A stretch of 64,000 bases of DNA from the NCBI GenBank assembly GCA_030584105.1, contig CP129491.1:2186503-2250502 (forward strand), given 5' to 3'. Under the pieces are notes generated by a model. The model did not search any database, was not told the DNA's origin, and worked only from the letters and a program-made list of their open reading frames with translations. The position numbers and the translations under genes are program-made. Position 1 is the stretch's first letter. Every line of letters begins with the position of its first letter. The DNA comes from Ignavibacteriaceae bacterium. Lineage in GTDB: Bacteria; Bacteroidota; Ignavibacteria; Ignavibacteriales; Ignavibacteriaceae. Of the stretch, positions 15,038 through 34,802 are shown in pieces.

Positions 15038-15165
15038 TAGTTGAAGCCTTACTGCGATTATTGATAATAATAGTGGTGGTGTTTTTCATCCGCACCGCCA
15101 TGCCTGATGATAAATTTTGGCTGATTTTAACACTGTTCGCCGTAAGTGCGGGGGTAATCCTTCCC
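14840..15165. repeat. tandem segmental duplication, period 185 bp, c. 140 bp conserved per copy
   Basis: ATGGGCAAAATAGT(T/A)GTTGAAGCC...GTAAGTGCGGGGGT occurs at 14840-14980 and 15025-15165 with a few substitutions. Confidence 0.9.
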
Positions 15166-18930: not shown

Positions 18931-20198
18931 TATCGTTTCTTAAAAATGAGTATATGTTCTTTAGGATACACTTTAACACTATTCAATTCGCTTGGAGAAG
19001 TAAATCTCCCAGATATCGGGTGACGAGTTGTTGGAATCTGCTTCAATGAAATATTTCTCGTAATTCTTTTTTCTAAATAAAAACTTTCTTCTCTCATCAA
19101 ACTGATCAAAATATCCGAGGTGGGTATCGTAACTTCCCTAAGCTTACTATCTCCAACAACCATACAACAGGTTGCTCCTGGTTTTAAAATTCGATGTATT
19201 TCCTGAATTACCTGTTGCATTGAAATAAAATAATTCTCAATTTCTTTCGCAATTTTCTTATTTTTCACTGCTAATTGTGAAACAGTATCTGAGGCTAACA
19301 GACAATTTATTTCAGCTTCAATTTTTTCAGAGTAAAATGTTCCAATAAATTTTTTTCTAAATTCTCTAAGATCACTAAAAAAGTTAAACACATAACCAGA
19401 TAATTGATGAATATCCGCATATTCGTAAGATGTCGCATAAGGAGGGGAGGTAATTACAAGATCAACAGAATCATTTTCAAGTCCAGTATCCCGCGCATCT
19501 CTGAGATGAATTTCACTTTGAATATCCAATCGGTTCTTTTTACTTAGATAGCTATGAAATTCCATGTTCTTTTTCCACATTTTTTTAATCTGATATTCAA
19601 AGAGATTGAAAGGGTCCTTAATCTGTTTCTTTGGATCAATTTGTGGTTTAGTGCTATCTTGAAGCCAACGGCTGGAAGTTTTGAGAATGTTCGATAATCC
19701 AACTTTTAGAAAAGTCTCAAGTTCTTTATTATCTACTTCTTCGATACATTTTTTCAAATAGCCGATTTTGTTTTTCTGCTCTGGGCAAAACCAATAGTTA
19801 AGCCTCGGGTGATCGGATATATAGTATTTTTCTTCCTCGTTGTAGTTGCTAAACCACTCTTGAATTATTTCTAATAAATTTTGATGCGAACCTGGAGCAA
19901 TAGTAGTTATTTTCGATTTTGTTATCATTTCAGCAACTGGATTAACATCAAACCCAATAGACCTGTAGCCATGACTTTTTGCCTCAACCAATGTTGTCCC
20001 ACAACCGGCAAATGGATCAACAATAAGACAATCCTCTGTAGCGTAGGTCTCTATCAATTTGGAAACAATCTGTGGAATAAATTTTGCAGGATACCTGTGG
20101 TAACCGTGGGTGTAGCTATCGATAGACCTGTGCCCGGCAAAAGACCACTCATCTGAACATTCGTTAACTTTACTGTTCTCAACTGCTACACTCAACAC
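18930..20198 (-). CDS. DNA methyltransferase (N4-cytosine or N6-adenine; motif I precedes SPPY)
   Basis: HRYPAKFIPQIV..IVDPFAGCGTTLVEAK (motif I region) and DLVITSPPYATSYEY (motif IV). AT-rich. Confidence 0.8.
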   Translation of the reverse strand: MLSVAVENSKVNECSDEWSFAGHRSIDSYTHGYHRYPAKFIPQIVSKLIETYATEDCLIVDPFAGCGTTLVEAKSHGYRSIGFDVNPVAEMITKSKITTIAPGSHQNLLEIIQEWFSNYNEEEKYYISDHPRLNYWFCPEQKNKIGYLKKCIEEVDNKELETFLKVGLSNILKTSSRWLQDSTKPQIDPKKQIKDPFNLFEYQIKKMWKKNMEFHSYLSKKNRLDIQSEIHLRDARDTGLENDSVDLVITSPPYATSYEYADIHQLSGYVFNFFSDLREFRKKFIGTFYSEKIEAEINCLLASDTVSQLAVKNKKIAKEIENYFISMQQVIQEIHRILKPGATCCMVVGDSKLREVTIPTSDILISLMREESFYLEKRITRNISLKQIPTTRHPISGRFTSPSELNSVKVYPKEHILIFKKR

Positions 20199-20390: not shown

Positions 20391-22043
20391 TCACCCCTCG
20401 ATAAGTTTGATTTTAATTTTTTTGGTTACGGTATAGAGTTCGTTTTCTTCGGTGAGGATGCCGGGGGAGATCTCCTCAATATCCACATAGTTTTTTTTGG
20501 GCAGGGCGACGAACTCGCAGAAGTCAAAAAGGCGACTGCGGTCTTTCAGGACGGGTGCAAAGTCAGTCAGGTTATTTTTGTTTATGTGGAACTCGGCAGT
20601 AGCAATAGTGCTGTCGAAGACGATTTCGAAAAAGGAGTCGCTCGCCGGTTTGCTTTGAAAATCGTCAACACTGAAGGTTCCGGGCTTAAGTGAGATATCG
20701 CTGCTATAATCCGGCACATAATATGTTACCCGCATGCGCTCGAAGGTGCTTCTTAAATCGGGATTTGTTTTTCGAAGTGTCGCCTCAGAGCCTTTTCTGC
20801 TTCCGGTATCAGCCGGGTCTCCCTGCCTGAAGTCGGTTCTTGGGGCATTTTCGGAGGGGTCTCCCCCCTCTGAGGGGTATCTTTTATCGGGGGAGAGTTG
20901 CCCGCCGAGGCTGGCGGCACTTCCGGATTCAGAGGGGTTTTTTCCGGCGGAGGCGCCAGTTCCCTTTAGGTCAAACTCGCCAAAATTCCCCGTTTTCAGT
21001 ACCTTTTCCAACAATCGACGGGTTGTTTTAATCCCGTGGAAGTTGTAAAGGGAAACCAAAAGTGTAATTAGCAGAAGGCACAGCGCTGTGAAAATTAAGA
21101 TTTCGTTGGAAATGCCGCCTACGATCTCTTGCCCGCGATTGCTCGTACGGGATTGAGTGTCGGTGCCGACTGAATCATGCCCAAAGGAAGCAGTAAGTAT
21201 TTCGCTTTGGGTGCCGCTTCTGCTTTGTGTGCTACCTGCCGTGCTACGGGGATTAAAGTTCGCACCAGCAGAGGTTTCGCTTTGGGTGCCTGTGGAAACG
21301 GTGCCGCCTCTATTGCCTAAACTTCCGGCTTTTAACTCATCGGACAGAGTGCCGCCTCTATTGCCTAAACTTCCGGCTTTTAACTCATCGGACAGAGTGC
21401 CGCCTCTATTGCCAAAATCACCCGCTTTTGTACCACCGGACAGAGTGCCCGATACTTCCAAAACGGCAAGTGCACCCAGGAAAGCAAAAACTATTGCAAT
21501 CCTAAAGAGCAACGCCCGGTAACTTAAACACTTTCTGTTTTGAGGGTTGGGCTGTGTTTTACTTTTTGCCGCACCACCGGACAAAGTCGCAACGCTTAAA
21601 CACTTTCTGTTTTTGGGGTTAGGCTGTGTCTTAGTTTTTGCCGCACCACCGGACAAAGTCGCAACTTCTATATGCTTTTTGTTTTGGGGGTTTCCGCCGT
21701 CACCCGCCAATTCATAGTCTGTACAAAAAGGAATTTCATCCATATTATCCCGCTTGCCTAAGTTTTTATTGGGGTTACCCGCCACTTCACAGCCTGCACG
21801 AAAAGGAATTTCATCCATACTATCCCGCTTTTCCGGGTTTTGATCGGGATCGCCCGCCAATTCATAGCCTGTACAAAAAGGAATTTCATCCATACTATCC
21901 CGCTTGCCTAAGTTTTTATTGGGGTTACCCGCCAATTCACAGCCTGCACGAAAAGGAATTTCATCCATACTATCCCGCTTTTCCGGGTTTTGATCGGGAT
22001 CGCCCACCACTTCACAGCCTGTACGAAAAGGAATTTTATCCAT
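20391..22043 (-). CDS. repeat-rich membrane protein, unknown function
   Basis: The 550-aa ORF has 5 x 25-aa repeats (MDEIPF(R/C)(A/T)G(C/Y)E(L/V)AG(N/D)P...KRDS), 2 x 24-aa repeats (VATLSGGAAK(T/S)KTQPNP(K/Q)NRKCLS) and 3 x 16-aa repeats (GTLSDELKAGSLGNRG). It also has two hydrophobic helices and a non-repetitive c. 130-aa C-terminal domain. Confidence 0.5.
   Translation of the reverse strand: MDKIPFRTGCEVVGDPDQNPEKRDSMDEIPFRAGCELAGNPNKNLGKRDSMDEIPFCTGYELAGDPDQNPEKRDSMDEIPFRAGCEVAGNPNKNLGKRDNMDEIPFCTDYELAGDGGNPQNKKHIEVATLSGGAAKTKTQPNPKNRKCLSVATLSGGAAKSKTQPNPQNRKCLSYRALLFRIAIVFAFLGALAVLEVSGTLSGGTKAGDFGNRGGTLSDELKAGSLGNRGGTLSDELKAGSLGNRGGTVSTGTQSETSAGANFNPRSTAGSTQSRSGTQSEILTASFGHDSVGTDTQSRTSNRGQEIVGGISNEILIFTALCLLLITLLVSLYNFHGIKTTRRLLEKVLKTGNFGEFDLKGTGASAGKNPSESGSAASLGGQLSPDKRYPSEGGDPSENAPRTDFRQGDPADTGSRKGSEATLRKTNPDLRSTFERMRVTYYVPDYSSDISLKPGTFSVDDFQSKPASDSFFEIVFDSTIATAEFHINKNNLTDFAPVLKDRSRLFDFCEFVALPKKNYVDIEEISPGILTEENELYTVTKKIKIKLIEG
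21299..21450. repeat. 48-bp tandem repeat, about 3 copies
   Basis: GTGCCGCCTCTATTGCC(T/A)AA(C/A)... units lie within the 550-aa ORF. Confidence 0.85.
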
Positions 22044-22484: not shown

Positions 22485-25007
22485 TCAATTAACCGGTTCA
22501 TTCTCAAAAGTTTGTCCGTATTCTTTTGCACTTATTACAGTATTATACAGCCCGACTGAGGTTTCATTGTGGCGGTTTACTCCTGTGTAAGCAAGGCTGG
22601 GGTCTTCATACCTTTTGAATTTATAGACGGCGTCGTTCATAAGCCCTTCATTGAAAAGCCCAAGACTCACTAAAAGCTCGAAATCGGGAATTGATAACCC
22701 GGTTACCCGCTTGAAAAGGTCAGGTTCAAGTTCCCTAATTATATCCTGCAGGCTAAACTCCCGGAAATCAGTCAGATATAAGAAAACCGGTATTCTGGTA
22801 GCAAACTTGATCAGTTTTTCCTGAATCATTTTCCTTTTCGATTTATACTCTTTTTCCTCAGCAGTTAACTCTCTTTTTTCTTTATCTGAAAGTTCACGGT
22901 CGTTCGCGCTGTTTTTCAGTTTTTTGATAGTTTCCGATTTATTAATAATAGTTTCAATATCCTGATTCAACGATCTGAACCCCTCAATACTCATCAGCGC
23001 AGCCATAGCTTTCTCATTTGCCAGCAGGCGCCTGAGCGTGTTATTGTCAACATTTACGAGCAGAGCGCTCTCCCATCTTCTTGCAAGAAGTGTCGCTGTG
23101 GTACCACTCATCGCCATATCCAAAACCCCTGCAGCGTCTATCTGTTTCATTGAACTGCCATCGTAGGCAAGAATAGGCAAAAATGAGATAAACTCAGCCA
23201 CTTTTTCTTCAGGATTTTTATTATTCACATCAAGCCGGCAACTGTAGTCAGCAATTTGCCTTAAAGCCCGGTCGGGTGCAAAATCGAAAACATAACACTC
23301 TCTTTTCAGAATCTCTTCTTGGTTCGGGTTTTCGCCGTCAGGGTTCTTGATCACCCACGGTGTCTGCACCCGGAATGCCGCCTGAAAATAGGTTTCGGGG
23401 CTTGAGGAATTTCTTAGCATAAAAATGCCCGACCATGGCTTAACCGAAACGCCGGTGGTAAGTTTTCCGCATGAAAGCGTTATAGTTCTGGTTTTAACGG
23501 GGTTATCCATCTCTTTAGAAACGGGCGGAAGTGCCTCTGCGCCAATACCAGCCCCTGAACCTGCAGCAACCACAATCCCGAACTGCCGGTAGAAATCATT
23601 TTGCTCCTGCCTGAAAAGATTAGCCATTGCGTGGCACGCAGAAACACTCGGAAGAAACCAAAAAGTATGAGAAAGAATCTGAAGAAATCGCCTGTCGGAG
23701 TAGGGAAACGGCGGCTTTTTATCACCAAGTTTCAGATTATCAACCGTAGCCGGTGAGTGTGCGCCTCTTATCAAATCGAGCCATTTTTGAACTTCATTTT
23801 CATGAATAAATTTCGCAGCACTGAATTCGCCTTCAGCCTTAAAGAACTCGTTAAGGTCAAACTCGTTAAACTCACCCTTCAGCGCAATATCTTTAATTGC
23901 CGGCGGCAGTTGATAAGTCAGCATCACCATTCTTGGTAATGATTCGTAGGGGTTAGGTTCGTTTGGGTTGCTCCACTCAGCTTTTGCGCGTTGTTCATCC
24001 GAGTAAGTCCAGTTAAAAATTTGTTCTTCGATAAACTCACCCGAAGCAATCGCTCTGAAAGGTGTTCCGGAAAGATAAAGATAGTGGTTTGTGGTTATCG
24101 GCATAAATTCTTCGTCAAAATAATCAATACCGACACCCTCACCGAACTGAATCTCTTTTTTATCTTCCTCCTCAAAAAGGTCTTTTGCGTTCTCCCTCCA
24201 TGCGCCGTAGTGATACTCATCCAAAATCACGCAGTCCCAGTTTGTTGTGTGCACCCACTCGTTTTTTGGCTTTATTCCCCCCGCTTCATTTTTTCCGAGA
24301 AAATCCTGAAACGAACCAAAACAGACCAAAGGTTTGGAATTGTCGCTAATTTCAAAAGTTAAACCTTTTTCGGAATAGAATTGCCATCCCGCAAAATCGA
24401 TATGGGAAAGAAGGTCTTCTTCCCACGCTGTTTTAACCGCCGGTTTGAAGGTAAGCACGAGGATTTTCTTCCACCCCATTCTTTTTGCCAAGTGATATGC
24501 TGCAAATGTTTTACCGAATCTCATTTTTGCATTCCAAAGGAAGTGAGGCGTTCTTTCTTTGTTTTCCGGCTCGGATTTAAAACTTTCAAAATAGGCGATG
24601 GTTTTTTCAATCGCAGCTTCCTGCTCGGGGCGCAATTTGAATGTTTGTGTTCGATTTGCCTCGTTAGTCACCCCCTTTTGAACGGCAAGTATAGCCGATT
24701 TAACCTCTTTAACAGTACATCTGAACCATTCACCGGCGGGATTACTAATCCCCATTTTTCTCAAATATTTGTGAACATCTTTATCCATGAAAGATGAGCC
24801 GTCGTCTCTCATCGCTTTTTCTTCAAGAACGATTCTGTAGGGGAGTTCACCCGGACGGCGGGTTGGGTATTGCCCGGCAACACGGGTTTTTGCGTCCCTT
24901 GTTGTATATCCGACTTTTAACAGCCCGTTGTACTTTGGGTTCGTATCTTCATAAGCGTAAATTGTCGGGTTAACTTCAGGCCTTAATGGGAAAAATTTCT
25001 CAGACAA
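22485..25007 (-). CDS. T5orf172/GIY-YIG-like domain fused to SF2 DEAH helicase (candidate restriction/translocase subunit)
   Basis: N-terminal IYAYEDTNP..GLLKVGYTTRDAKTRV...GEWFRC. Walker A RFGKTFAAY, DEAH box VILDEYHYGA, and LYLSGTP. Confidence 0.7.
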   Translation of the reverse strand: MSEKFFPLRPEVNPTIYAYEDTNPKYNGLLKVGYTTRDAKTRVAGQYPTRRPGELPYRIVLEEKAMRDDGSSFMDKDVHKYLRKMGISNPAGEWFRCTVKEVKSAILAVQKGVTNEANRTQTFKLRPEQEAAIEKTIAYFESFKSEPENKERTPHFLWNAKMRFGKTFAAYHLAKRMGWKKILVLTFKPAVKTAWEEDLLSHIDFAGWQFYSEKGLTFEISDNSKPLVCFGSFQDFLGKNEAGGIKPKNEWVHTTNWDCVILDEYHYGAWRENAKDLFEEEDKKEIQFGEGVGIDYFDEEFMPITTNHYLYLSGTPFRAIASGEFIEEQIFNWTYSDEQRAKAEWSNPNEPNPYESLPRMVMLTYQLPPAIKDIALKGEFNEFDLNEFFKAEGEFSAAKFIHENEVQKWLDLIRGAHSPATVDNLKLGDKKPPFPYSDRRFLQILSHTFWFLPSVSACHAMANLFRQEQNDFYRQFGIVVAAGSGAGIGAEALPPVSKEMDNPVKTRTITLSCGKLTTGVSVKPWSGIFMLRNSSSPETYFQAAFRVQTPWVIKNPDGENPNQEEILKRECYVFDFAPDRALRQIADYSCRLDVNNKNPEEKVAEFISFLPILAYDGSSMKQIDAAGVLDMAMSGTTATLLARRWESALLVNVDNNTLRRLLANEKAMAALMSIEGFRSLNQDIETIINKSETIKKLKNSANDRELSDKEKRELTAEEKEYKSKRKMIQEKLIKFATRIPVFLYLTDFREFSLQDIIRELEPDLFKRVTGLSIPDFELLVSLGLFNEGLMNDAVYKFKRYEDPSLAYTGVNRHNETSVGLYNTVISAKEYGQTFENEPVN

Positions 25008-25063: not shown

Positions 25064-26602
25064 TTATTCTTTATTTCCATTATTCAATTCCATCGGGCGG
25101 ATCATTGAGTCAATAAATGCAATTTCCTCTTCAGTTAAACCGTATTTTGCATAAAGCTTTTCGTCGGTCCAGCTCTCATTAAAATCCTGCATTGGCACGA
25201 ACTGATAGACTTTTGATGACGCATGCTGTGTACTTTTACGCAATAAAACCAAAAATCTGAATAATTTTGTTTTTATATAACTTATTGCGTTTTCAGCAAG
25301 AATTTTAGTTTTAAATGGCCCTATCATAACATAAGTTTCGGAGCATATAGTAGAAGGTGCACCATAAAATGGTTTATTAATAATCTGATGTGGATAGGAT
25401 TCGCCAGCACCGTAAGCCATTGTAATAAAAACTTTATGAGCATCAATCCAATCTTTATTAACCTGGATTATCTCCCTACTACAATATGAAATTGATTTGT
25501 TCCCATAAATTAACAAATCTCTTTCGGTATCTCTTTGCTTATTTCCTTTATAAAATGTCCTAAGTCCAAATGGTTTTTGATTACTTACAAGCTCGGCAAA
25601 AGATTTCTCTTTTAAAAAAACAACTTTCCGATAAATTGAAACAGCTTCATTGAACCTAATAAAAATGTCAGAATCTTTTTCAAGAAGATATCTTTTATCT
25701 GTCGATTGCAAGTCACCTTGCTTTGTAGTTATTTCACACATACCAGAATAATCTCTATCCCATAAAAAATAGCAAACCCCACCCTTTATTTCTACGCCAG
25801 GAAAGCATTCAGTGGAAATTGGATAATCAACTAATTTACTTATCCGTCTATCATTCAACATCGTAATTCGGAAGTTATCTAATCCTCTTCCCCCTGAAAA
25901 CCATCTTGAAGGAATAACCATGGTAATAAATCTTGGTTCTAAGGATTTCGCTTGTAAGACAAATTTATCATAAAGTGGGATTGCACCCCCTCGAATTCTA
26001 ACCTCTGTTTGAGAATCACCTCCATCACTCAACTGATAAGGGGGGTTACCAACAATAACATCAAACTTCATGTTAAATAATTCTTCCGGATTTTCTGTGT
26101 GAATAAATTGATAAGCGTGTGTTTCAAGTTCTTCGCCCCTGTCATATACGGATTGGCTCGCACCGCAGAAAGAGCACCGTCCGTTCACCCAGGTATGTTC
26201 AATCCTGTTGTATAAAATATTTCCTTCTTCGGAGGTAAACCCCGTGCTGACGGAATACTTTCCGTTAGCCAGTCTTGAACAATAAAGAGTCCTCCTGGAT
26301 ATAAGGGATGTAATATCTGTGATAGCAATTCCAAATATCTGATTGGTATAAATATGGTTGATTCTTTCCTGAAGATCGGGGAATTTACTTTTAAGCCCTC
26401 TGTTAAGCCGTTTCGCAATTTCACGGAGAAAAACCCCCGATTTGCAAACGGGGTCCAAAAATTTTACATCGGGGTTGCTCCATAATTCAGGGGGCAACAT
26501 ATCCAACAAACTGTTTGCTAACTCCGGCGGTGTGAAAACCTCGTCACTGCTCAGGCTTGCCAAACAAGAAAGAACATCGGGATTGTAAACCGACTCATTC
26601 AT
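25064..26602 (-). CDS. Eco57I/TaqI-like N6-adenine DNA methyltransferase with C-terminal presumptive target-recognition domain
   Basis: SDEVFTPPELANSLLDML, motif I-like FLDPVCKSGVFL (first Gly position is Lys) and motif IV VIVGNPPYQ. The C-terminal c. 300 aa are visibly more AT-rich. Confidence 0.75.
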   Translation of the reverse strand: MNESVYNPDVLSCLASLSSDEVFTPPELANSLLDMLPPELWSNPDVKFLDPVCKSGVFLREIAKRLNRGLKSKFPDLQERINHIYTNQIFGIAITDITSLISRRTLYCSRLANGKYSVSTGFTSEEGNILYNRIEHTWVNGRCSFCGASQSVYDRGEELETHAYQFIHTENPEELFNMKFDVIVGNPPYQLSDGGDSQTEVRIRGGAIPLYDKFVLQAKSLEPRFITMVIPSRWFSGGRGLDNFRITMLNDRRISKLVDYPISTECFPGVEIKGGVCYFLWDRDYSGMCEITTKQGDLQSTDKRYLLEKDSDIFIRFNEAVSIYRKVVFLKEKSFAELVSNQKPFGLRTFYKGNKQRDTERDLLIYGNKSISYCSREIIQVNKDWIDAHKVFITMAYGAGESYPHQIINKPFYGAPSTICSETYVMIGPFKTKILAENAISYIKTKLFRFLVLLRKSTQHASSKVYQFVPMQDFNESWTDEKLYAKYGLTEEEIAFIDSMIRPMELNNGNKE

Positions 26603-27248
26603 TTTCCGTAAGCCTCAAAAAATGAGTAATTGGGTACTCAGCCACGGGAGTGGGTATGAACGCCTTTTCGCCAAGGTCAGAAAACAAGTTTTCTCCTTCA
26701 AGAGGTTGACTTTCAAGAAGGTTAGCCATTGTGTAGTCGCGTCTTTTTATCATATTATCGTTTACGAAGCTCCACTCACTGAAAACTATAGGTTCTGCCT
26801 TTTTATCGGGCGTTTTAAGAGTTAGGGCGTCACCCCAAAGAATATTACGATTTAAGATAAAACGGACTGAATTAAAACACTCGTGCCGGCACTTTTCTTT
26901 ATAAAGCCTTGAATATCGATCGGTGAAAATTGCAAATAACCGCTCGCGACACTCAATTACATTGTCAGGAAGGATATCGATACCATAAATTGAGGAAACA
27001 GCGAGCACACCATAGCGCTCCCATTCGAATTGACTGCTTTTGTAACGGGAATCGACAACCGTTAGTTTACGGCGAAGTATTTCGACGAGGAAATTCCCCG
27101 TTCCGCAAGCCGGCTCTAAAAACCGTGAATCGATCCGCTCGGTTTCCTGTTTTACGAGATCGAGCATGGCGTTAACCTCGCGTTCGGAGGTGAAAACCTC
27201 GCCGTGATCGGCGACCCGCTGCTTCGATTTAACCTGCATAGCGGTCAC
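26595..27248 (-). CDS. DNA methyltransferase N-terminal half (motifs X-I-II-III, no catalytic NPPY)
   Basis: HGEVFTSEREVNAMLDL, canonical motif I FLEPACGTGNFL, IYGIDIL and WGDAL. It ends at 217 aa without an NPPY motif and overlaps the downstream MTase gene by 8 nt. Confidence 0.6.
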   Translation of the reverse strand: MTAMQVKSKQRVADHGEVFTSEREVNAMLDLVKQETERIDSRFLEPACGTGNFLVEILRRKLTVVDSRYKSSQFEWERYGVLAVSSIYGIDILPDNVIECRERLFAIFTDRYSRLYKEKCRHECFNSVRFILNRNILWGDALTLKTPDKKAEPIVFSEWSFVNDNMIKRRDYTMANLLESQPLEGENLFSDLGEKAFIPTPVAEYPITHFLRLTENE

Positions 27249-27339
27249 AACTGATGATGATTGTTATGTGTGGCACTATAAACCCTGTTTTTGTTTCGCA
27301 AATTAGCAATAAATTTTTTATCCGCAAAGCGAAGAGGCT
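27118..27339. repeat. direct repeat, left copy (222 bp): first 44 codons plus 91 bp upstream of the 217-aa MTase-fragment gene
   Basis: Near-identical to 32420-32641 at an offset of 5302 bp. A few mismatches occur only in the distal c. 40 bp. Confidence 0.95.
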
Positions 27340-27545
27340 GCAAGCAGCGGTTACTGATCAACCATAAGTTGCCATTCTACAACAGGGCGATTACCAAACT
27401 ACAAACACGGTTGGCAAACTGCATAATCAGCACAGTTGTTACTCAGGTATAATTAAACCGGTGAAACATTAGTACAGTATGGCTGGTGACCGTGCAGACT
27501 TGAATCAGTTCAGCAATAAACACCCTTCAGAAAACGATCTCAAAA

Positions 27546-28571
27546 TCAGAAGGGAAGATCATACCCTCCCGAGGCACCATATTCATTATTAATCTCTTCG
27601 CTTTCAACAATTTTATTGATGATATTTCCCGCAGCTTCCTGCAAAAGATAACATTCATATACTCCTAACTTTTTGGATTCTGTTGTCAGAAAGTCGTAAA
27701 CCTCCCACAAAGTTTTGCATTTTCCAAGTTGAAACATGTATTCTTTCAAATCGTAAACAGATACTGCCGGGGAAAGGATACTCTTAACCTTAGGGGATAA
27801 TTTAGCACCATAGACTATTGAATTAGCTTTAACCAGCTTTTTATTAAACTCGGGTGCAATTCGGTTAAATTCCTCTTCAAAATCTTTTAACGAAGATTTA
27901 AAGTTCTCAAACCCACCACGATTGTGGTAGAAAAGGGTAGTGTCTCCTTTTTCCATAGTTACCGCTCCGTTGGAACAAATATACCTCAATACATGGACTG
28001 ACCGGGAAAGTGCTCCAAACCCTGTCTGAGAATTGGTGAAGTGCAGGCTGTAACCCACCAAATCGCCGACTTTAACCTCTGTTTCTAACTTTACATTGGT
28101 TCGAAATCTTGTGATGTAAGGATCATAATCGACTGTAGTGATGCCGAAATGTTTTATTGCTTCATAGAACTTCAAATCTTCAACGGTTTCATAATTGTGG
28201 GCTAAGATGCTATAGACATAGTCATTCTCAATCCGTAAGTTTACTCTGCTATTGTTATAGTTCTGTCCTCTTCTGTCAATTTCAGTGAGCAGATCATTAA
28301 TTATCTTTTCTTTTGCCTCCGTTGAAAGATAATTAACCATTTCAGTGCCGGTGTAAAACCAGCGAAAAATTTTCCTGACAAAAATGGTAGGAATAAGAAA
28401 CAAGTCGCTTTTTTGACCCTCAACCTGAAGGAACAGTTTGTTATCTTTTATCAGCGCTTTTAAATGATATGGCGCTACCTCAAGGTTCTGTACCTTTATT
28501 TTAGAACGGAAATCAAAAAACTGCTCCGGGCTTAAATTTACTTTTGAGTTTTGTTTGTTGTAATAGTACAT
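27546..28571 (-). CDS. DUF932-like (phage/plasmid TIGR03299-like) protein
   Basis: The 341-aa ORF contains FTNSQTGFGALSRSVHVLRYICSNGAV. This resembles the conserved NS.DGS.A...R.VC.NG core of DUF932 as recalled from memory. Confidence 0.5.
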   Translation of the reverse strand: MYYYNKQNSKVNLSPEQFFDFRSKIKVQNLEVAPYHLKALIKDNKLFLQVEGQKSDLFLIPTIFVRKIFRWFYTGTEMVNYLSTEAKEKIINDLLTEIDRRGQNYNNSRVNLRIENDYVYSILAHNYETVEDLKFYEAIKHFGITTVDYDPYITRFRTNVKLETEVKVGDLVGYSLHFTNSQTGFGALSRSVHVLRYICSNGAVTMEKGDTTLFYHNRGGFENFKSSLKDFEEEFNRIAPEFNKKLVKANSIVYGAKLSPKVKSILSPAVSVYDLKEYMFQLGKCKTLWEVYDFLTTESKKLGVYECYLLQEAAGNIINKIVESEEINNEYGASGGYDLPF

Positions 28572-28693
28572 TTTATTACTCCGTCTTTTTATTTGTTGTT
28601 TATCGTTTATTAATTTCTAAATGTGCCCCCTTATCCCTTAAGAGAGCCGGGTTTTTGTTTTTTCCGGTTTCGTAAAAAAAATCCAACACTTAT

Positions 28694-31495
28694 TTATGCC
28701 GCTATTTCCTCTTTTACCCTTGAAATACATTTTTCAAGGCTATGCCACACTTCATAATTCCAGAATCTCAGAACTTTCCAGCCTTCTCTTTGCATTGTAT
28801 AATCTCTCACATTATCATAACTGCTCCGCGTTCCCGGAACGGCACCTTCATGCCCGCTGCCGTCAACTTCAATGCAGATTTTTTTATCGTCAACAAAAAG
28901 CGCGATATCCATTCTGTACGCAAAAAAATTATACTGGCATTCCGGTTCAAATCCTTCTTCACGGAGTCTTGTTGCCATAATTTTTTCTTCGGGTGTCACG
29001 GGTTCGTGATTGTTTGAAGGGTTAAGGTTTTTTTCCGCATATTTTGCCAAACGACTTAATAATTTGCATTTTGATTTTTTACAAAACTGTTTGTTTCCAA
29101 CGACGATTAAATTAGATTTTGCCCGGGTCAATCCCACATTTATAAGATTGTCGTTCCCTGAATAAAAGAACTCGTTATTATTTTTTAATTTACCCTCAAT
29201 CTCGATTGAGTAACTGACTCCAAGAGAGAAAATCATTACATCTTTTTCATCTCCCTGAAACCGGTGAATTGTATCAATCACAATTTCTTTATTTCCTTTA
29301 TTCTTAGAAAGCAGCGGGGTACATGCCTCCAGTATCTTTTGGACTTGTAATCGAAACGGTGAAGTAATTCCTATACTTGTTATTTCTTCAGAATCAATTA
29401 ATACACTCAAAATTTCTTTGCATTTTTCAATTTCTTTCGAAAGAATAAATTTATTATAAAGCGGTATATATTCATCTTTCACATCAATCCACTCAAAAGT
29501 TGGTTTTTCCCCCCAATTATTTAATTCCAGATAATTAGTACGAATTTTTAATTTATTTCCGTAAAACTCATTGTTTGAAAATGAAATAATCTCTTTTTTT
29601 GATCGAAAATGTTCATCGAGCATTATTTCAGAAGAACCGTCAATATTTTTTGAACGGTGCGCTATTAGTGACAAGATTGAACTTACCCCAAACTCCCACT
29701 CATTGAACTTCATCAAATTAAAATACTGTTTGAATAGTGTTTTACGCCTTTGGGATGAAAGATTTGTAATATGATTAAGCTGTTTTTCATCACCAACTAC
29801 AATTAAACTTTTCGCCCTCAACATTAAACAGAGAGTGGAAGGTATATCGCATTGGCTCGCTTCATCTATTATAACATAGTCAAATATTCCCGGCGAAAGT
29901 GGGAGTTGCCCCGAAACAGACAGGTTTGAAACCGTCCATATTAAAAGAAATTTTCTTATTGGTAAAAATTTTTCCTTAAATTCAACTCGTTCCTGCTTAC
30001 TGTTGAATTGATTATCTATCCAGAAACTAAGTAATCGCTGATATTCATTCAGTAATTTTTTTTCGTTTTCATCGCGGAAAGAATAGTTTTTCCTGATCGT
30101 TAATATTAATATCGCTTTATTAATATTTAATAATTCTTCCCTTTTTCGAAAAATGAGGTCTGTAAGTTCTTCAACGCGCTTCAATTTTTCCGCCCTTAAA
30201 ATCGCTTTGTGATACCTGACCATTTTCTTTATTCTCGGAGAAATTAGGGCAGCTTTCGGAATTGAGTTTAATTTTTGAAGGTTGTAATAAATTTTTTCGT
30301 AATTAACGCTTCTTCCTTTAATATATTTTCTATATTCTTCAGAAATACTTAATCGGGTGTTATTTATTTCTTCCTGTTCAATTAACAGTTGATCAATCTC
30401 TCGTTCAATTTGTTTTGATTTAGCGGAAAGATCACGCAATTTCTGATCTTCCGCCGGCATAAAATTGTTATAATCCTGAATTTCCTGAATATTCGCTTTT
30501 AAAATAGATACTAAGTCCTTTTGACCTTCTGATCTTCCCAGTTTTAGCATAAAAGGCAGTTGGTCAAGGTATTTGTCAATTCGTGACATTACCGTTTCTA
30601 TCGCCTTATGGTTATGGCTGCTGAAAAGAATCGATTTGTTTTTCAAAAAAGCATTAAATATTATGTTTATTACAACATCTGACTTGCCGGTGCCGGGAGG
30701 TCCCTGAATATTGGTTATGCCTGAGGATAAAGCCATTTTAACCGCTTCTTTTTGTGAAGCATTAAGAGGTGTAAACATAGAAACATCTTCGTTCCCGGAT
30801 ATTTTACGGTTTGGCTCAAACAGATATTTTAGTGCACTTTCTGAAAAAAAATCATCCAAAGACTTTGAATTTAATTTGGCAATTTCTTTTAACTCGAACT
30901 CGAGTCCTTTTGTGAAATTAGATTTTTCACAGATAAAAAACGACGCTGCATTGGTATAAATATTTTTTTCCTTCTGTTCTTCCGGGTCCGTACTGATAAA
31001 TTGTTCCAAAGTTTTCATCAATTCTTCAACAATATTTCTCTTTTTCCCGTTGATTGGCTCAGTTAAATTAAGAGCTTCAACCTGCCTCCGAAAACCGTTC
31101 AGGTCAATTCCCATTTCTTCAAAAAAAGTCGAATTAAACCTGAACTCTTCATAATCCACTAAAACAAGTTCTTTCATTTCAGTGAGTATAAAAACAAAAG
31201 CAGGAATTATTTTTTTGTATTCTTTCTGATGAAAGATTGGGAAACCAATTACAAAATCTGTTACTTTTGCTTTTTCATCATTTATACCGAGTCTTTCTTT
31301 TATCCGTTGTATAGAATCAGCAGGAAAGTTCTCATTTTTTTGAAATAACTCAAACTCTTCTTCCTCCAAATTGAGGTAAGTTCTTTTCTTTTTCTTTTCA
31401 TCTTTGGCAACTTCTGTGGCAATTTTAAATTCTCTGTCTTCAATAACATACTGATGATAGTAGTCAATCAGCTTTCTAAAATCTTCTTTTTTCAT
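28694..31495 (-). CDS. SF1B (Upf1/Dna2-like, AAA_11/AAA_12) helicase fused to C-terminal DUF559/Vsr-like PD-(D/E)xK endonuclease
   Basis: Walker A IQGPPGTGKS, Walker B VIIDEASQC, plus VVGDEKQL, LDEHFRS, IHRFQGDEKDVMIFS and NVGLTRAKSNLIVVG. The C-terminus reads YRMDIALFVDDKKICIEVDGSGHE...REGWKVLRFWNYEV. Confidence 0.85.
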   Translation of the reverse strand: MKKEDFRKLIDYYHQYVIEDREFKIATEVAKDEKKKKRTYLNLEEEEFELFQKNENFPADSIQRIKERLGINDEKAKVTDFVIGFPIFHQKEYKKIIPAFVFILTEMKELVLVDYEEFRFNSTFFEEMGIDLNGFRRQVEALNLTEPINGKKRNIVEELMKTLEQFISTDPEEQKEKNIYTNAASFFICEKSNFTKGLEFELKEIAKLNSKSLDDFFSESALKYLFEPNRKISGNEDVSMFTPLNASQKEAVKMALSSGITNIQGPPGTGKSDVVINIIFNAFLKNKSILFSSHNHKAIETVMSRIDKYLDQLPFMLKLGRSEGQKDLVSILKANIQEIQDYNNFMPAEDQKLRDLSAKSKQIEREIDQLLIEQEEINNTRLSISEEYRKYIKGRSVNYEKIYYNLQKLNSIPKAALISPRIKKMVRYHKAILRAEKLKRVEELTDLIFRKREELLNINKAILILTIRKNYSFRDENEKKLLNEYQRLLSFWIDNQFNSKQERVEFKEKFLPIRKFLLIWTVSNLSVSGQLPLSPGIFDYVIIDEASQCDIPSTLCLMLRAKSLIVVGDEKQLNHITNLSSQRRKTLFKQYFNLMKFNEWEFGVSSILSLIAHRSKNIDGSSEIMLDEHFRSKKEIISFSNNEFYGNKLKIRTNYLELNNWGEKPTFEWIDVKDEYIPLYNKFILSKEIEKCKEILSVLIDSEEITSIGITSPFRLQVQKILEACTPLLSKNKGNKEIVIDTIHRFQGDEKDVMIFSLGVSYSIEIEGKLKNNNEFFYSGNDNLINVGLTRAKSNLIVVGNKQFCKKSKCKLLSRLAKYAEKNLNPSNNHEPVTPEEKIMATRLREEGFEPECQYNFFAYRMDIALFVDDKKICIEVDGSGHEGAVPGTRSSYDNVRDYTMQREGWKVLRFWNYEVWHSLEKCISRVKEEIAA

Positions 31496-31497
31496 TT

Positions 31498-32238
31498 TTA
31501 CTTGTCTGTTAGTTCATTTTCAAGGTCGATAACTTCGAGCAAAGTTTTATGCATGGCTTTATTGTTCTCAATGAGTTCATTCAGGCTGTTAATGATTGCT
31601 TCATTAAGTTCCGCGACTTTCTCATGCTCTTTCGACCTTGTTTCGCTGATTTGTGAGCTTGTTTTTAAAAGTGAATCAATTTCCTCCGATCGTGTTTCAC
31701 TGATCTGCTTGTTTGCTGTGAGAAGTGTGTTCATTTCCTTTGATCTGGTTTCGCTGGTTTGCATAATGGCTTTATAAAGTGAATCAATTTCCCCCGATCG
31801 TGTTTCACTGATCTGCTTGTTTGCTGTGAGAAGTGTGTTCATCTCTCTTGACCTTGTTTCACTGATCTGCATGTTTGCTGTGAGAAGTGTGTTCATCTCC
31901 CTTGACCTTGTTTCACTGATCTGCATGTTTGCTGTGAGAAGTGAATCCATCTCTTTCGATCTGGTTTCGCTGATTTGCATGTTTGCATTAAGAAGTGTGT
32001 TCATCTCCCTTGACCTTGTTTCACTGATCTGCATAATGGCTTTATGAAGTGTGAATATTTCCTCTGACCTTGTTTTGGCACTTGCGTTATTATTTTCAAT
32101 CAACTTCTCGAACAACTTTTGAATTTTTTCATCGTTTTGCAGAAGTTCCTTTGTGTTTTTGAAATAAAAAACCAAAAATAGCGGTAATGAAACCAAAAGG
32201 ATCACTATGATTAGCAGGAATATTTGTGTTGTATCCAT
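31498..32238 (-). CDS. N-terminally membrane-anchored coiled-coil protein made of 18-aa tandem repeats
   Basis: TM helix IFLLIIVILLVSLPLFLVFYF, then about 8 repeats of ANMQISETRS(R/K)EM(N/D)(T/S)LLT. The stop lies 2 nt before the helicase start. Confidence 0.65.
   Translation of the reverse strand: MDTTQIFLLIIVILLVSLPLFLVFYFKNTKELLQNDEKIQKLFEKLIENNNASAKTRSEEIFTLHKAIMQISETRSREMNTLLNANMQISETRSKEMDSLLTANMQISETRSREMNTLLTANMQISETRSREMNTLLTANKQISETRSGEIDSLYKAIMQTSETRSKEMNTLLTANKQISETRSEEIDSLLKTSSQISETRSKEHEKVAELNEAIINSLNELIENNKAMHKTLLEVIDLENELTDK
31630..32075. repeat. 54-bp tandem repeat array, about 8 copies, in frame
   Basis: TTTCACTGATCTGCATGTTTGCTGTGAGAAGTGTGTTCATCTC(C/T)CTTGACCTTG units. Confidence 0.9.
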
Positions 32239-32419
32239 CTTTTGTATCTCCGATTTGTAATTATTAAATTAGTTTAATATTAAATTTTTACATTAACAGT
32301 TTTTAACACATCTTATTTTTTTCAATTGCTGCGGAAAAGTTAAACCTTCATAGAAATAAACCGGTTTTAGGTATTCCTTATTTTTGTTGGAATACATACG
32401 CGGGGAACGGCAAATAAAC

Positions 32420-32550
32420 AAAAACCGTGAATCGATCCGCTCGGTTTCCTGTTTTACGAGATCGAGCATGGCGTTAACCTCGCGTTCGGAGGTGAAAACC
32501 TCGCCGTGATCGGCGACCCGCTGCTTCGATTTAACCTGCATAGCGGTCAC
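32420..32550 (-). pseudogene. 5' fragment (44 codons) of the MTase-fragment gene, broken just before motif I
   Basis: MTAMQVKSKQRVADHGEVFTSEREVNAMLDLVKQETERIDSRFL is identical to the N-terminus of 26595..27248. The reading frame then runs into unrelated sequence, giving ORF 32293..32550. Confidence 0.85.
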
Positions 32551-32641
32551 AACTGATGATGATTGTTATGTGTGGCACTATAAACCCTGTTTTTGTTTCG
32601 CAAATTAGTAATAATTTTTTTATCCGCAAAGCGATGAGGCT
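32420..32641. repeat. direct repeat, right copy (222 bp)
   Basis: Matches 27118-27339. It contains the same ATG (32550) and the same 91-bp upstream region. Confidence 0.95.
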
Positions 32642-33142
32642 ACCGGCGGCGGAAATGTTGCCCCATCCGTCAACGGAGATGAAAATTAAACTGCCGGGCA
32701 GCAGCTACCTGCCTGAGCGATCCGCTTCTCACCACCACCCTTGTCCCGTTATCCTTTCAGAAGAAACTCATTTTCAGTAAAATATTCCACTTCATCAAAA
32801 ATACCCTCGTCCTGTTATCCTTTCAGAGTAAGACCCTTTTGAACAAAAACGGGGGAACCTCTGTTTATTTAGTATCAGGATAATGAAGAGCAAGAGTTCT
32901 TTCCGCAAGGGATGGGTGTTTGCTGCTCAGCCAAAAGTTGCTATTCCACCAAAAGCGCAGTTACTTAACAACAATAAAGGTGACATTTCAATAACCGGGA
33001 TGGTTATTGCTCCGACGGGGGCGGTTTGAAAATAGTTCTGCACACCCAAAAGTTGATAATTTCCCGCAAATGTTTACGGGTTAAAAAAATATCATTATTT
33101 TTATAGCCTTGTATTATTATTTTAATCAATTATTAAAACAAA

Positions 33143-34633
33143 ATGAGTCTGCCGATGAAAATTTCCGTTTTTTTGGTTATAGTGGTTGCTTTTTCAACCG
33201 CCGTAATGATTTCAACCAAGCCGGCACTTCCGCAAGCGATGAAGCTGCAGAATGCTTTTCCTAATATCAGCATACCAAATGCGGTTGATTTTCAGTCGCC
33301 TTACGATAAAACAGACCGCATTTTCGTGGTTGCTCAAACGGGCAAGATTTTCGTTTTTCCGAATACTCCCACAGCCTCGAACCCGAAGGTTTTTCTTGAT
33401 CTCACGGACCGCGTCCTCTACGGCGGCGAGCAGGGGTTGCTCGGGCTTGCTTTCCACCCCGACTATGCAAACAACGGGTATTTTTATGTAAACTACACCA
33501 CTTCCAACCCCAGAAGAACTCACATTTCAAGGTTTCAGGTTTCACCAACTAACCCCGATTCTGCGATGAAATCAACGGAATTGGTGTTGCTGACCTACAA
33601 CCAGCCCTACACGAACCATAACGGCGGGCAGGTGGCTTTCGGACCCGACGGATACCTCTATATCGGCGCAGGCGACGGCGGTTCGGGCGGAGACCCACAA
33701 GGCAACGGGCAAAATAAGGCGGTGTTTCTTGCTAAAATTCTGAGAATTGATGTTAACAACACTTCCTCCGGAAAAAACTACGCCATCCCCCCGGATAACC
33801 CGTTTGCCGGGAACACACAAGGGTGGAAGGAAGAAATTTACGCTTACGGCATGAGGAACCCCTGGCGCTTCAGCTTTGACCCCAAAACTAACCTGCTCTG
33901 GGTGGCTGATGTGGGGCAGAACGAGTGGGAGGAAATTAACATTGTTGAAAAAGGGGGCAACTACGGCTGGCGCATAATGGAGGGCTTCCACTGTTATAAC
34001 CCCTCTTCAAATTGCGACACAACGGGGCTGAAACTGCCAATTTGGGAGTACCGGCACAACTCGGCGGGGGGCTACTCGATCACGGGCGGCTTCGTTTACC
34101 GCGGCAACAAAAACCCGCGCCTCTACGGCAAATATATCTACGGCGATTATGTTTCCAAGCGGATTTGGGCGCTTTCTTACACCCCCGGGCAGCCCGTTCA
34201 GAATGAAGTGCTGGTTAACAATGCCGGGTTCTCTATCACTTCGTTCGGCGAAGATACCTACAGAAACCTTTATATTATCGACTACTCCGGCAAAATCTGG
34301 AAGTTTGTTGAGGATGTCGATGCAATTAACCGGATACCCAACTTCACCGGTGGCAAATTCGCCGCTCTGAAGCAGAACTACCCGAACCCTTTTAACCCAT
34401 CAACTTCCGTTTCCTTTTTACTGGGGAAAGAAAGCGATGTGAAGGTTGATGTTTACGATATCTACGGCGGATTAGTAAGTGAAATCACAAGAGGGTTCTA
34501 CCAAGCTGGCGAGTTTATTTTCGGGTGGGAGCCGGGCAAGCTTGCCTCGGGTACATACCTCATCAGAATGACCGCAACCGCAACAGACGGGGCTGTGCAG
34601 TCGGAAACCGTTAAAGCTGTTTATCTGAAGTGA
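33143..34633 (+). CDS. PQQ-dependent sugar (glucose/sorbosone) dehydrogenase with T9SS C-terminal sorting domain
   Basis: Signal peptide. GGEQGLLGLAFHPDY, HNGGQVAFGPDGYLYIGAGDGG, YAYGMRNPWRFSFD and GGNYGWR. The C-terminus reads KQNYPNPFNPSTSVSF...TYLIRM. Confidence 0.85.
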   Translation: MSLPMKISVFLVIVVAFSTAVMISTKPALPQAMKLQNAFPNISIPNAVDFQSPYDKTDRIFVVAQTGKIFVFPNTPTASNPKVFLDLTDRVLYGGEQGLLGLAFHPDYANNGYFYVNYTTSNPRRTHISRFQVSPTNPDSAMKSTELVLLTYNQPYTNHNGGQVAFGPDGYLYIGAGDGGSGGDPQGNGQNKAVFLAKILRIDVNNTSSGKNYAIPPDNPFAGNTQGWKEEIYAYGMRNPWRFSFDPKTNLLWVADVGQNEWEEINIVEKGGNYGWRIMEGFHCYNPSSNCDTTGLKLPIWEYRHNSAGGYSITGGFVYRGNKNPRLYGKYIYGDYVSKRIWALSYTPGQPVQNEVLVNNAGFSITSFGEDTYRNLYIIDYSGKIWKFVEDVDAINRIPNFTGGKFAALKQNYPNPFNPSTSVSFLLGKESDVKVDVYDIYGGLVSEITRGFYQAGEFIFGWEPGKLASGTYLIRMTATATDGAVQSETVKAVYLK

Positions 34634-34642
34634 GGTAAAATA

Positions 34643-34802
34643 CCCCCGGCGCCCCCTCAACGCTTCTTAAGCAAATCCGCCAAGGCAACATCAGGAAAAA
34701 TTTCCGAAAATGAGGAGCGGAACCCCCGGCGCCCCCTTAACGCTTCTTAAGCAAATCCGCCAAGGCTGCATCTATTTCCGGAAAGGAGAAGCGGAACCCC
34801 GC
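34643..34802. repeat. 80-bp tandem duplication of the 3' end of the YfcH-like gene
   Basis: CCCCCGGCGCCCCCT(C/T)AACGCTTCTTAAGCAAATCCGCCAAGGC... occurs at 34643 and 34723. The second halves have diverged. Confidence 0.85.

Follow-up and report, generated by a model that had tools for sequence, protein, structure and literature searches.

Campbell-type single-crossover integration and homology-facilitated illegitimate recombination, the latter reportedly described by de Vries and Wackernagel in 2002, require no recombinase other than host RecA. [quoted passage not shown] Units inserted with long target duplication span a few kilobases, carry no mobility genes, are flanked by repeats of 30 to ~420 bp and have a sister genome with one copy (Furuta, Abe & Kobayashi 2010, NAR 38:2428, PMC2853133). 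They sit in defense-gene neighborhoods, and their repeats can mediate loss or amplification; by the criterion of the 2010 screen, the inserted unit contains homologs of R and M genes (PMC2853133). The DrdVI system of Deinococcus wulumuqiensis NEB 479 is listed as Type IIG, with M1-2.DrdVI assigned to GCAGCC and 6mA (PMC6430315, PMC4996451).

The locus analyzed here is closest to the insertions with long target duplication known from the Kobayashi group, which it resembles in its repeats of 233 nt (>30 bp), its insert of 5069 nt (<20 kb) and its lack of mobility genes. Unlike the units of Furuta et al. 2010, the insert is not an R-M system but a helicase-nuclease module heading an R-M operon. 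A further difference from the described cases is the duplicated target, namely the promoter of the R-M operon plus 44 codons, and the mismatches between the copies are clustered, a pattern that points to incoming DNA with its own homology. A recombinase-free insert between direct repeats and one sharp joint are shared with Campbell-type and illegitimate recombination, whereas no circular intermediate, donor genome or microhomology at the joint was found here. Like integron gene cassettes, the inserted genes are possibly promoter-less, stand behind a resident promoter and may be excisable; unlike them, they have a leader of their own (181 nt) and are associated with no integrase, attC, attI or array.

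Repeats, R-M operon and three-gene cassette

The window, a stretch of 64,000 nucleotides from an Ignavibacteriaceae genome (genus-level group UTCHB3), contains a low-GC defense island at ~15.4 to 32.65 kb. The DrdVI-type operon, the last unit of the island, is directly preceded by the co-oriented three-gene module. The features are as follows.

22485..25007, minus strand: R gene, 840 aa, T5orf172/GIY-YIG-type nuclease fused to a ResIII translocase, 56% identity to DrdVI
25064..26602, minus strand: M2 gene, 512 aa, Eco57I-family N6-adenine methyltransferase with a target-recognition part, 50% identity to M2.DrdVI
26595..27248, minus strand: M1 gene, 217 aa (214 aa from the ATG at 27239), intact M1 subunit of the DrdVI-type system
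27118..27350, minus strand: left repeat copy, heading the intact M1, with the outer 45 nt at 27306-27350
27546..28571, minus strand: cassette gene 3, 341 aa, divergent protein of the DUF932 superfamily, not a known recombinase
27552..27570, minus strand: terminator-like hairpin closing cassette gene 3 on the 3' side, 5' of the left repeat copy (consensus scan only)
28694..31495, minus strand: cassette gene 2, 933 aa, Upf1-like SF1 helicase (AAA_11/AAA_12) with a C-terminal DUF559/MTES_1575 nuclease
31498..32238, minus strand: cassette gene 1, 246 aa, membrane/coiled-coil protein with an N-terminal membrane helix and then tandem repeats of 18 aa (54 nt)
32293..32550, minus strand: dead 85-aa stub ORF, 44 N-terminal M1 residues (tblastn over residues 1-44, 98% identity) and 41 unrelated residues
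32420..32652, minus strand: right repeat copy (GSDH-proximal), promoter-like region, start codon at 32550 and M1 codons 1-44

The original prediction of near-identical direct repeats at an offset of 5302 bp agreed with a repeat search and an in-register comparison, which even extended them to 27118-27350 and 32420-32652, on either side of the 5069-nt insert. Over the full extent of 233 nt there are seven mismatches (27346, 27343, 27342, 27340, 27333, 27313, and 27307), the last three of which lie within the 222 nt first noted, the homology running 11 nt further outward. All seven are confined to the outer 45 nt, whereas the inner 189 nt (27118-27306 and 32420-32608) are 100% identical; such clustering has a probability of ~1.3e-5 under uniform divergence. 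The outer parts resemble diverged homologs, with 84% identity over 45 nt (blastn E ~4e-9). The right copy matches the one-copy contigs described below, and it is the left copy that deviates at the seven positions. A 58-mer taken from the repeat occurred exactly twice in the window and not at all in 100 shuffles.

The content claimed for each copy, namely 91 nt 5' of the GTG (at 27248 or 32550; 102 nt in the 233-nt version) and M1 codons 1-44 (MTAMQVKSKQRV...IDSRFL), held in translation and alignment. Identity stops past the second base of codon 44, immediately 5' of EPACGTGNF. The breakpoint was thereby placed correctly directly before motif I; a random fragment end or an illegitimate joint suffices to explain this position. 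Two further small gene-end duplications are present in the window, at 14840-15164 and 34642-34800.

M1, M2, and R are co-oriented in the gene order of pDrdVI, with the 3' end of M1 overlapping the start of M2 by 8 nt, and their products share 45, 50, and 56% identity with the DrdVI proteins in near full-length alignments. Like DrdVI, the system combines a small M1 (~212 aa criterion), an Eco57I-family M2 and a nuclease-translocase fusion of the GIY-YIG/T5orf172 type; unlike plasmid-borne DrdVI, it lies in a chromosomal island. As assigned from these genes, the operon is a putative complete DrdVI-type R-M system, a type defined by m6A methylation of a particular asymmetric site that takes M1 and M2 together, and by restriction through R. 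M1 contains SAM motif I and lacks the NPPY motif. Its earlier label as a methyltransferase fragment was wrong: truncation of the 217-aa gene was considered and rejected, since it is a full-length M1.DrdVI homolog in a family of >8000 homologs of similar length, all of 213 to 256 aa. The three-gene M1-M2-R unit is also present in other genomes, and the M1 5' coding region is 72 to 85% identical in nucleotide sequence across phyla. By tblastn, no M1 stub, second M1 or second N-terminus was found in the loci of 80 other species, where the extra matches were to the paralogous N-terminus of M2.

The conserved N- and C-termini of the cassette gene 1 product are common to the 139-aa and 188-aa genes preceding the helicase in loci L118/L119 and L117, and in one strain the protein is 228 aa long. 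Contig L015 differs from the window by 34 apparent SNPs, which were rejected as divergence because they reflect a register shift with one 54-nt repeat unit missing. The gene 2 product resembles the helicases of Hhe, Mokosh (MkoA-MkoC), and PDC-S37 in its Upf1-like SF1 core, and Hhe also in its C-terminal Vsr/DUF559-type nuclease. It scored below every curated cutoff, with 79 bits against Hhe (NCBIfam NF042953, cutoff 2000 bits) in the C-terminal helicase/nuclease part only and with no DUF4011, and with 153 bits against ProA (cutoff 1500). Unlike the three systems, gene 2 is half the length and its two partner genes are foreign to them. The gene 3 product scored 14.1 bits against DUF932 (PF06067), below the Pfam gathering cutoff of 23 bits, and five of its ten remote profile relatives exceeded the cutoff (25.6 to 41.6 bits); it is a divergent relative and no formal member. 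Structure prediction of this 341-aa protein was unusable (pLDDT 39), and PDB sequence searches with it and with M1 gave no matches. Relatives of the DUF932-like gene were absent from viral contigs and were found on one short contig only among metagenome contigs.

Domain searches detected no methyltransferase among the three cassette proteins. The absence of an integrase, transposase or terminal inverted repeat was borne out: searches of the cassette gave no integrase, transposase or HUH domain and those of the neighboring island genes no mobility domain (Pfam, NCBIfam, PADLOC, and PHROGs), the repeat search gave no inverted repeats at the cassette ends, and no tRNA was found around the cassette. 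Neighborhood and sub-threshold similarity make the three-gene module a candidate defense system.

That the right copy is a dead 5' stub leading into three co-oriented genes was confirmed by ORF analysis. The novel joint of the stub lies at 32419/32420, and the end of its ORF is followed after 54 nt by the cassette genes in the same orientation; a consensus scan gave no terminator-like site between the stub and gene 1. Borrowing or sharing of the R-M promoter by the module through the stub copy, with co-transcription, is plausible from this layout. The cassette leader (32239-32419) is AT-rich and could hold a promoter of its own. A conserved promoter 5' of gene 1 was sought by alignment with L117-L119, which was uninformative because there is no conservation in this region. 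The unique junction sequences at 27351-27545 and 32239-32419 had no matches in ~100 related loci, a search of the window and ~90 related loci with 27307-27545, 32239-32419, and 32609-33142 likewise gave none, and an Rfam scan of 26500-33300 gave no credible match.

Module and insertion site in other genomes

The module also occurs elsewhere, where it has no M1 stub and stands in unrelated contexts that lack M1. Its composition in these loci is as follows.

L117: gene 1 and helicase
L118/L119: gene 1, helicase and DUF932-like gene
L105: helicase and DUF932-like gene, then a 7-8-gene system

In L017, the 7-8-gene system of L105 is followed by M1-M2-R, and in related Ignavibacteriaceae loci such modules stand in series and co-oriented. 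Judged by these gene orders, a donor-like neighborhood with the module near a DrdVI-type operon appears plausible; a donor genome with the order module, left-type outer sequence and M1 without a stub was not found.

At least four assemblies made independently of one Ignavibacteriaceae (UTCHB3) population have the same occupied layout, on contigs of 0.2 to 1.3 Mb (216 kb to 1.32 Mb) with 99.99 to 100% identity through both repeats and the cassette. The left junction is covered independently by contig L010, and contigs on which the M1 protein is recorded reach 3.37 Mb. Short-read contigs often break inside the repeat (L006-L008, L014-L016, L108, L109, and 14 similar contigs), so assemblers do struggle at this locus. 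An artifact in which two strain variants were joined or the repeat was mis-resolved, foreseen as a possible refutation, is nevertheless extremely unlikely given the recurrence of the layout in independent assemblies, and the duplication is confirmed as genuine.

A precise one-copy, "empty-site" junction was found in two contigs from other samples, L005 (a UTCHB3 genome bin, GCA_002050155.1) and L009 (ERZ24907698), both reading right-type outer part, common core and M1. M1-M2-R is identical in L005 and the occupied strains, and therefore no donor tract is visible; all strains are otherwise >99.9% identical. L009 additionally has two microhomology deletions, so it looks like a distinct variant. 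An empty site in related genomes is thus represented at the contig level by two metagenome contigs in which an assembler short-cut across the loop is possible; the L005 assembly was made from merged 2x300 reads, which could span the repeat. No circular or tandem cassette junction was seen, the only sign of one being a 123-nt overlap between the ends of L014, which a graph loop would also produce. An exact-sequence scan of the JGI metagenome collection with the repeat core gave no matches, the collection apparently being without these contigs.

Origin of the arrangement

A homology-driven origin is the most economical because the cassette is without a recombinase. With moderate confidence, the arrangement is attributed to incoming DNA that already carried an M1 5' region and recombined by homology, in a Campbell-type or one-sided-homology insertion. 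In a related island, the module would have stood directly 5' of a DrdVI-type operon before the transfer, and the DNA that brought it would therefore have included a separate copy of the first 233 bp of the operon. A 5.3-kb piece reaching from the module head to M1 codon 44 would have recombined with the resident M1 5' region, either through circularization and a RecA-type single crossover (Campbell) or through an equivalent event that used homology on one side and a single illegitimate joint at codon 44. The product would comprise the resident promoter and the 44-codon stub, the module, and the donor-type outer 45 nt followed by the identical 189 nt and the intact M1-M2-R. The R-M operon retains both a promoter and an intact M1, so the restriction enzyme is not left without its methylase; this probably accounts for the survival of the product. 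The module may be co-transcribed from the stub copy, and the repeats of 189 to 233 bp would allow its precise deletion.

From the clustering of the mismatches in the outer 45 nt it follows that the outer part of the left copy is no fresh copy of the resident target. The clustering fits incoming DNA with its own slightly different homology and argues against simple in-situ duplication; of the two origins that had been offered, the Campbell model thus gained from it and from the lack of a recombinase, and the simple duplication lost. A difficulty for the insertion of homology-bearing DNA is the identical 189-nt core beside a 16%-diverged outer part, which needs a mosaic donor or later gene conversion. 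The searches that gave no donor genome, no match to the junction sequences, no donor tract and no circular or tandem junction also count against it. Precise loss through the repeats had also been anticipated, and L005 and L009 have the one-copy form that it predicts; they are consistent with module deletion and with an ancestral empty site, which predicts them too. The term on/off cassette was an overstatement, as direct-repeat deletion is one-way unless the circle re-integrates.

An in-situ insertion with long target duplication, in which an incoming promoter-proximal module was flanked, after a break with widely staggered ends or by fill-in or template switching during repair, with two copies of the resident M1 5' region, is regarded as rather unlikely. 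It reproduces the geometry of the Furuta et al. 2010 cases (repeats >30 bp, insert <20 kb, no mobility genes and, at the contig level, a one-copy empty site), and the duplications at 14840-15164 and 34642-34800 show that the genome generates local duplications. The outer mismatches would then have arisen later, with gene conversion keeping the inner 189 nt; but with seven mismatches in the outer 45 nt versus none in 189 nt (P ~1e-5) and strains otherwise >99.9% identical, this would take fast divergence at the locus together with a conversion tract that stops at 27306, and there is no obvious selection for the stub to remain identical at synonymous sites. An improbable history is that two tandem DrdVI-type operons once existed, the upstream one having been deleted from M1 codon 45 on, with the module in its place and the first 189 nt homogenized afterwards by gene conversion. 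The resemblance of the outer repeat parts to diverged homologs and the serial stacking of such modules in the defense islands of relatives speak for it, whereas tblastn and blastn revealed no M2 or R remnants in the cassette or junctions, a second M1 or stub occurs in none of the loci of 80 other species, and more events are required than by the other models.

The highly conserved M1 5' end would also be a good target for a site-specific mobile element, as it is 72 to 85% identical across phyla, and gene-inserting elements often bring a replacement gene end. The helicase-nuclease or the DUF932-like protein, for example, would have acted as the unrecognized recombinase of this element, with the repeat as its attachment site. 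This is very unlikely, because the insertion does not recur at the target (no stub or second N-terminus in the M1 loci of the 80 other species), the same module occupies unrelated contexts without M1, and its family was not found in viral contigs. Searches for tyrosine, serine and DDE recombinases, integrases, transposases and HUH domains gave no match, and there are no terminal inverted repeats.

Probable growth of a defense island at an R-M operon

The locus reveals no new mechanism. A broader reading, regarded as very doubtful, is that the conserved M1 5' end serves as a recombinase-free landing pad, such that modules carrying the promoter and 44 codons insert by RecA at any DrdVI-type operon, are expressed from the duplicated promoter and excise as circles. 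If this were true, R-M addiction would select products that rebuild an intact M1, and an integron-like cassette economy would run on homology alone. Specialist attention is merited by the uncharacterized three-gene helicase-nuclease/DUF932 module and by how very strongly the small M1 subunit is conserved among DrdVI-type systems. With the insertion of homology-bearing DNA as the favored origin, the locus is a clean, apparently strain-polymorphic example of defense-island growth without dedicated mobility genes, in which a module added at the head of an R-M operon would leave methylase expression intact and would itself be removable.

Duplicated 5' end of a DrdVI-type operon

A repeat search of the window revealed a two-copy direct repeat (27118-27350 and 32420-32652; 97% identical), confirming the repeat pair predicted at an offset of 5302 bp. 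A 58-mer from its core occurred exactly twice in the window and not at all in shuffles. All genes around the repeat and the cassette are on the minus strand.

27118-27350, minus strand: left repeat copy, heading M1
32420-32652, minus strand: right repeat copy, on the side of the glucose/sorbosone dehydrogenase (GSDH) gene
26595-27248, minus strand: M1, 217 aa
25064-26602, minus strand: M2, methyltransferase
22485-25007, minus strand: R
31498-32238, minus strand: cassette gene 1, 246 aa, membrane helix and 18-aa tandem repeats
28694-31495, minus strand: cassette gene 2, 933 aa, Upf1-like SF1 helicase with a C-terminal DUF559/MTES_1575 nuclease
27546-28571, minus strand: cassette gene 3, 341 aa, weak DUF932 match

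Each copy contains the region upstream of a GTG start (27248 or 32550) and codons 1 to 44 of M1. In-register comparison located seven mismatches (27346, 27343, 27342, 27340, 27333, 27313, and 27307), three of which fall inside the 222-nt version of the repeat originally predicted. The inner 189 nt (27118-27306 and 32420-32608) are free of mismatches, the outer 45 nt are clear homologues diverged by 16% (blastn E ~4e-9), and outward of 27350 and 32652 the copies show no similarity. As predicted, identity ends immediately before the motif EPACGTGNF, after base 2 of codon 44, and the right copy is a 5' stub ahead of the co-oriented cassette genes, with an 85-aa ORF ending 54 nt before the first of them. 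The left copy heads the intact M1-M2-R operon.

The M1 product had been taken for a methyltransferase fragment, a reading that was rejected. M1 has >8000 database relatives; among the 120 listed, lengths range over 213-256 aa and identities to M1 over 71-80%. M1 is thus a complete, strongly conserved small protein, a full-length homologue of M1.DrdVI. In other genomes its homologues invariably open a three-gene unit, with an Eco57I-family methyltransferase (~500 aa) and a T5orf172 plus ResIII protein (~840 aa) as partners, and in PADLOC M2 and R matched two halves of a single Type IIG profile. The identical three-gene order was found by tblastn of plasmids in pDrdVI of Deinococcus wulumuqiensis NEB 479, with the entry "M1-2.DrdVI, GCAGCC, 6mA, IIG" in the strain's genome paper, where it is marked as cloned and expressed (PMC6430315); a second paper names M1.DrdVI and M2.DrdVI and calls DrdVI, which has a GIY-YIG domain, "a fused translocase and REase" (PMC4996451). 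M1, M2, and R of the window are 45, 50, and 56% identical to the DrdVI proteins over essentially the full length. What the repeat duplicates is thus the promoter region, with the first 44 codons, of the leading gene in a DrdVI-type operon.

M1 of DrdVI-type systems is unusually conserved (26595-27248 compared with loci L023-L102), with protein identity of 62-80% and 72-85% nucleotide identity in the first 130 nt across Ignavibacteriota, Bacteroidota, Proteobacteria, Patescibacteria (CPR), Spirochaetota, and Chloroflexota. The protein has SAM motif I, lacks the NPPY motif, and stands beside an M2 methyltransferase that is itself complete.

Related loci and the surrounding island

Exact-protein look-ups retrieved the region from many public assemblies of a single organism, an Ignavibacteriaceae in the GTDB genus-level group UTCHB3 that lives in anammox and wastewater reactors. 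The less likely explanation of an assembly artefact did not hold: both copies and the cassette are present on four contig sets 99.99-100% identical to the window, namely L001 and L003 (216 kb and 404 kb, probably one assembly), L002 (1.32 Mb), L004 (217 kb), and L013 (316 kb). Many short-read contigs (L006-L008, L014-L016, L108, L109, and 14 similar) break inside the repeat, as expected for its size of 189-233 nt.

Comparison of related genomes also yielded one-copy contigs. In L005 (GCA_002050155.1, the original UTCHB3 bin) and L009 (ERZ24907698), derived from samples other than that of the window, the GSDH flank is followed by a single repeat copy with the right-type outer part and then by M1. 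Relative to the window, L005 has three SNPs in GSDH and another repeat number in the 550-aa gene, whereas its M1-M2-R is identical. Both contigs are what either loss through the repeats or an ancestrally empty site would give; they may also be an assembler short-cut across the loop, and the L005 assembly was built from merged 2x300 reads, which could span the repeat (PMC5460018). L009 (contig_16421) lacks 57 bp in frame inside GSDH (window 34131-34187) and 203 bp including the GSDH start (window 32955-33157), both deletions being bounded by 4-nt microhomology (GGCA and AAAA), so that it may be a distinct haplotype that has undergone several deletions, or else a product of assembly at low coverage.

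The region of ~15.4-32.65 kb is a defence island adjoining the GSDH gene, with a GC content of 31-44% compared to 45-53% in the flanks, and comprises a second methylase/ATPase unit, a repeat protein, the DrdVI-type operon, and the cassette. Further features of the island and its edges were as follows.

15403-20198, minus strand: second R-M-like unit, encoding a methyltransferase of the N6_N4/D12 class (422 aa), a protein of 760 aa that has two HATPase_c-type domains, and one of 414 aa that matches no family
20391-22043, minus strand: 550-aa protein between the two R-M-like units, with several tandem-repeat families (75/150-nt, 72-nt, and 48-nt units) and no Pfam match; its length in near-identical strains is 550 (L001), 500 (L005), 484 (L007), and 450 aa (L006)
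14840-14979 and 15025-15164, plus strand: tandem duplication of 140 nt (94% identity, spacing 185), located precisely on the island's left, low-GC edge; it repeats the ATG and the opening ~46 codons of an ORF for a small membrane protein, with the intact copy from 15026 to about 15338; the layout of 5' stub, short spacer, and intact gene is the main finding in miniature
32737-32782 and 32803-32848: two direct copies of a 46-nt unit (76% identity, spacing 66) without an Rfam match in the GSDH-M1 intergenic region; a terminator-like hairpin (32689-32706) and the right copy follow directly downstream
34642-34726 and 34722-34800, minus strand: ~80-nt tandem duplication (94% identity) of the last 12 codons and stop (34737) of a 304-aa epimerase gene, which brings the gene-end duplications of the window to three

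Loci of related Ignavibacteriaceae carry these same modules one after another in a common orientation. L105 has a helicase/DUF932 pair and then a 7-8-gene system, which in L017 is followed by M1-M2-R. This uncharacterised, co-oriented system (L017 1-9904; L105 5306-14646) encodes proteins of ~430, 130, 481, 1150, 293, 515, and 207 aa and a trypsin-like protein, 32-88% identical between the two loci and with faint tubulin/MreB-like Pfam hints only.

Origin of the insertion

With mismatches evenly spread, as expected for a fresh target copy, the probability of all seven falling within one terminal 45-nt block is ~1.3e-5, and the strains are otherwise >99.9% identical to one another. Because of this clustering, the simplest reading is that the cassette brought its own M1 5' homology and recombined there. 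The left copy's outer part would have arrived together with the cassette from a donor island carrying the module directly upstream of a DrdVI-type operon; the incoming DNA would have reached M1 codon 44 and recombined through the common M1 5' region, either as a circularised fragment by a single crossover or in a one-sided-homology event with one illegitimate joint. Such a course would account for the sharp inner breakpoint (the end of a fragment, or an illegitimate joint), the outer limit (end of homology between the two islands), the intact operon, and the absent recombinase. The original interpretation is partly supported: its Campbell-type alternative gains from the clustered mismatches, but the donor arrangement was not found by blastn among the related loci compared, and incoming homology alone leaves the perfect core identity unexplained.

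A serious rival is in-situ long target duplication with subsequent gene conversion. In the "insertion with long target duplication" that the Kobayashi group reported for all R-M types and in many phyla, R-M units without mobility genes lie between direct repeats (30 to about 420 bp) that align to one copy in an empty-site genome (PMC2853133). The window agrees with this class in its geometry; it differs in that the insert is not an R-M unit and in that the clustered mismatches, where a fresh copy predicts an even spread, favour homology carried by incoming DNA. Less likely are a remnant of a second operon and a site-specific element. Against the latter, the predicted lack of mobility features held: domain and profile scans found no integrase or transposase domain in the module, the repeat search no terminal inverted repeats at the cassette ends, and the 64-kb window contains no tRNA. 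The M1 stub is absent from every other locus bearing the module, and 80 loci from other species (M1 62-80% identical) have no second M1 N-terminal copy, the only extra matches being the paralogous N-terminus of M2; the M1 5' end thus does not appear to be a recurring insertion target.

The cassette as a gene module

Gene 2 resembles Hhe, Mokosh, and PDC-S37 proteins, with scores far under every curated cutoff. Gene 3 matched no family at threshold in domain and family profile scans; a profile from its few close relatives found 143 representative clusters, and five of the ten remote relatives scanned were above the Pfam DUF932 cutoff. The gene 1 array (31622-32075) consists of 54-nt (18-aa) units, ISETRS[KR]EM[ND][TS]LL.AN.Q, whose copy number is strain-variable (246 aa compared with 228 aa in L015), and the 139-aa orthologues in L118 and L119 are without it.

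An equivalent trio in L118 and L119 comprises the 139-aa gene, a helicase 58-62% identical to gene 2, and a DUF932-like gene of 333 aa; L117 has a 188-aa gene just before the helicase, and in L105 a helicase 33% identical to gene 2 precedes its DUF932-like gene. The 139-aa and 188-aa proteins have N- and C-termini in common with the gene 1 protein. By these parallels the cassette is a single, complete module of three genes that recurs elsewhere.

A TTTG-N19-TAATTTG arrangement in the repeat, with two of the mismatches in its spacer, resembles promoters of the Bacteroidota type. The terminator scan found no terminator-like site between the stub and gene 1 and a hairpin overlapping the end of gene 3, which makes it plausible that the module is co-transcribed from the duplicated promoter; a promoter of its own could also lie inside the 181-nt AT-rich leader, on which upstream comparison of gene 1 with its relatives was uninformative. 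Because its neighbours elsewhere include HipBA, GmrSD, DarT/Macro, and similar genes, the module may be regarded as a candidate defence system.
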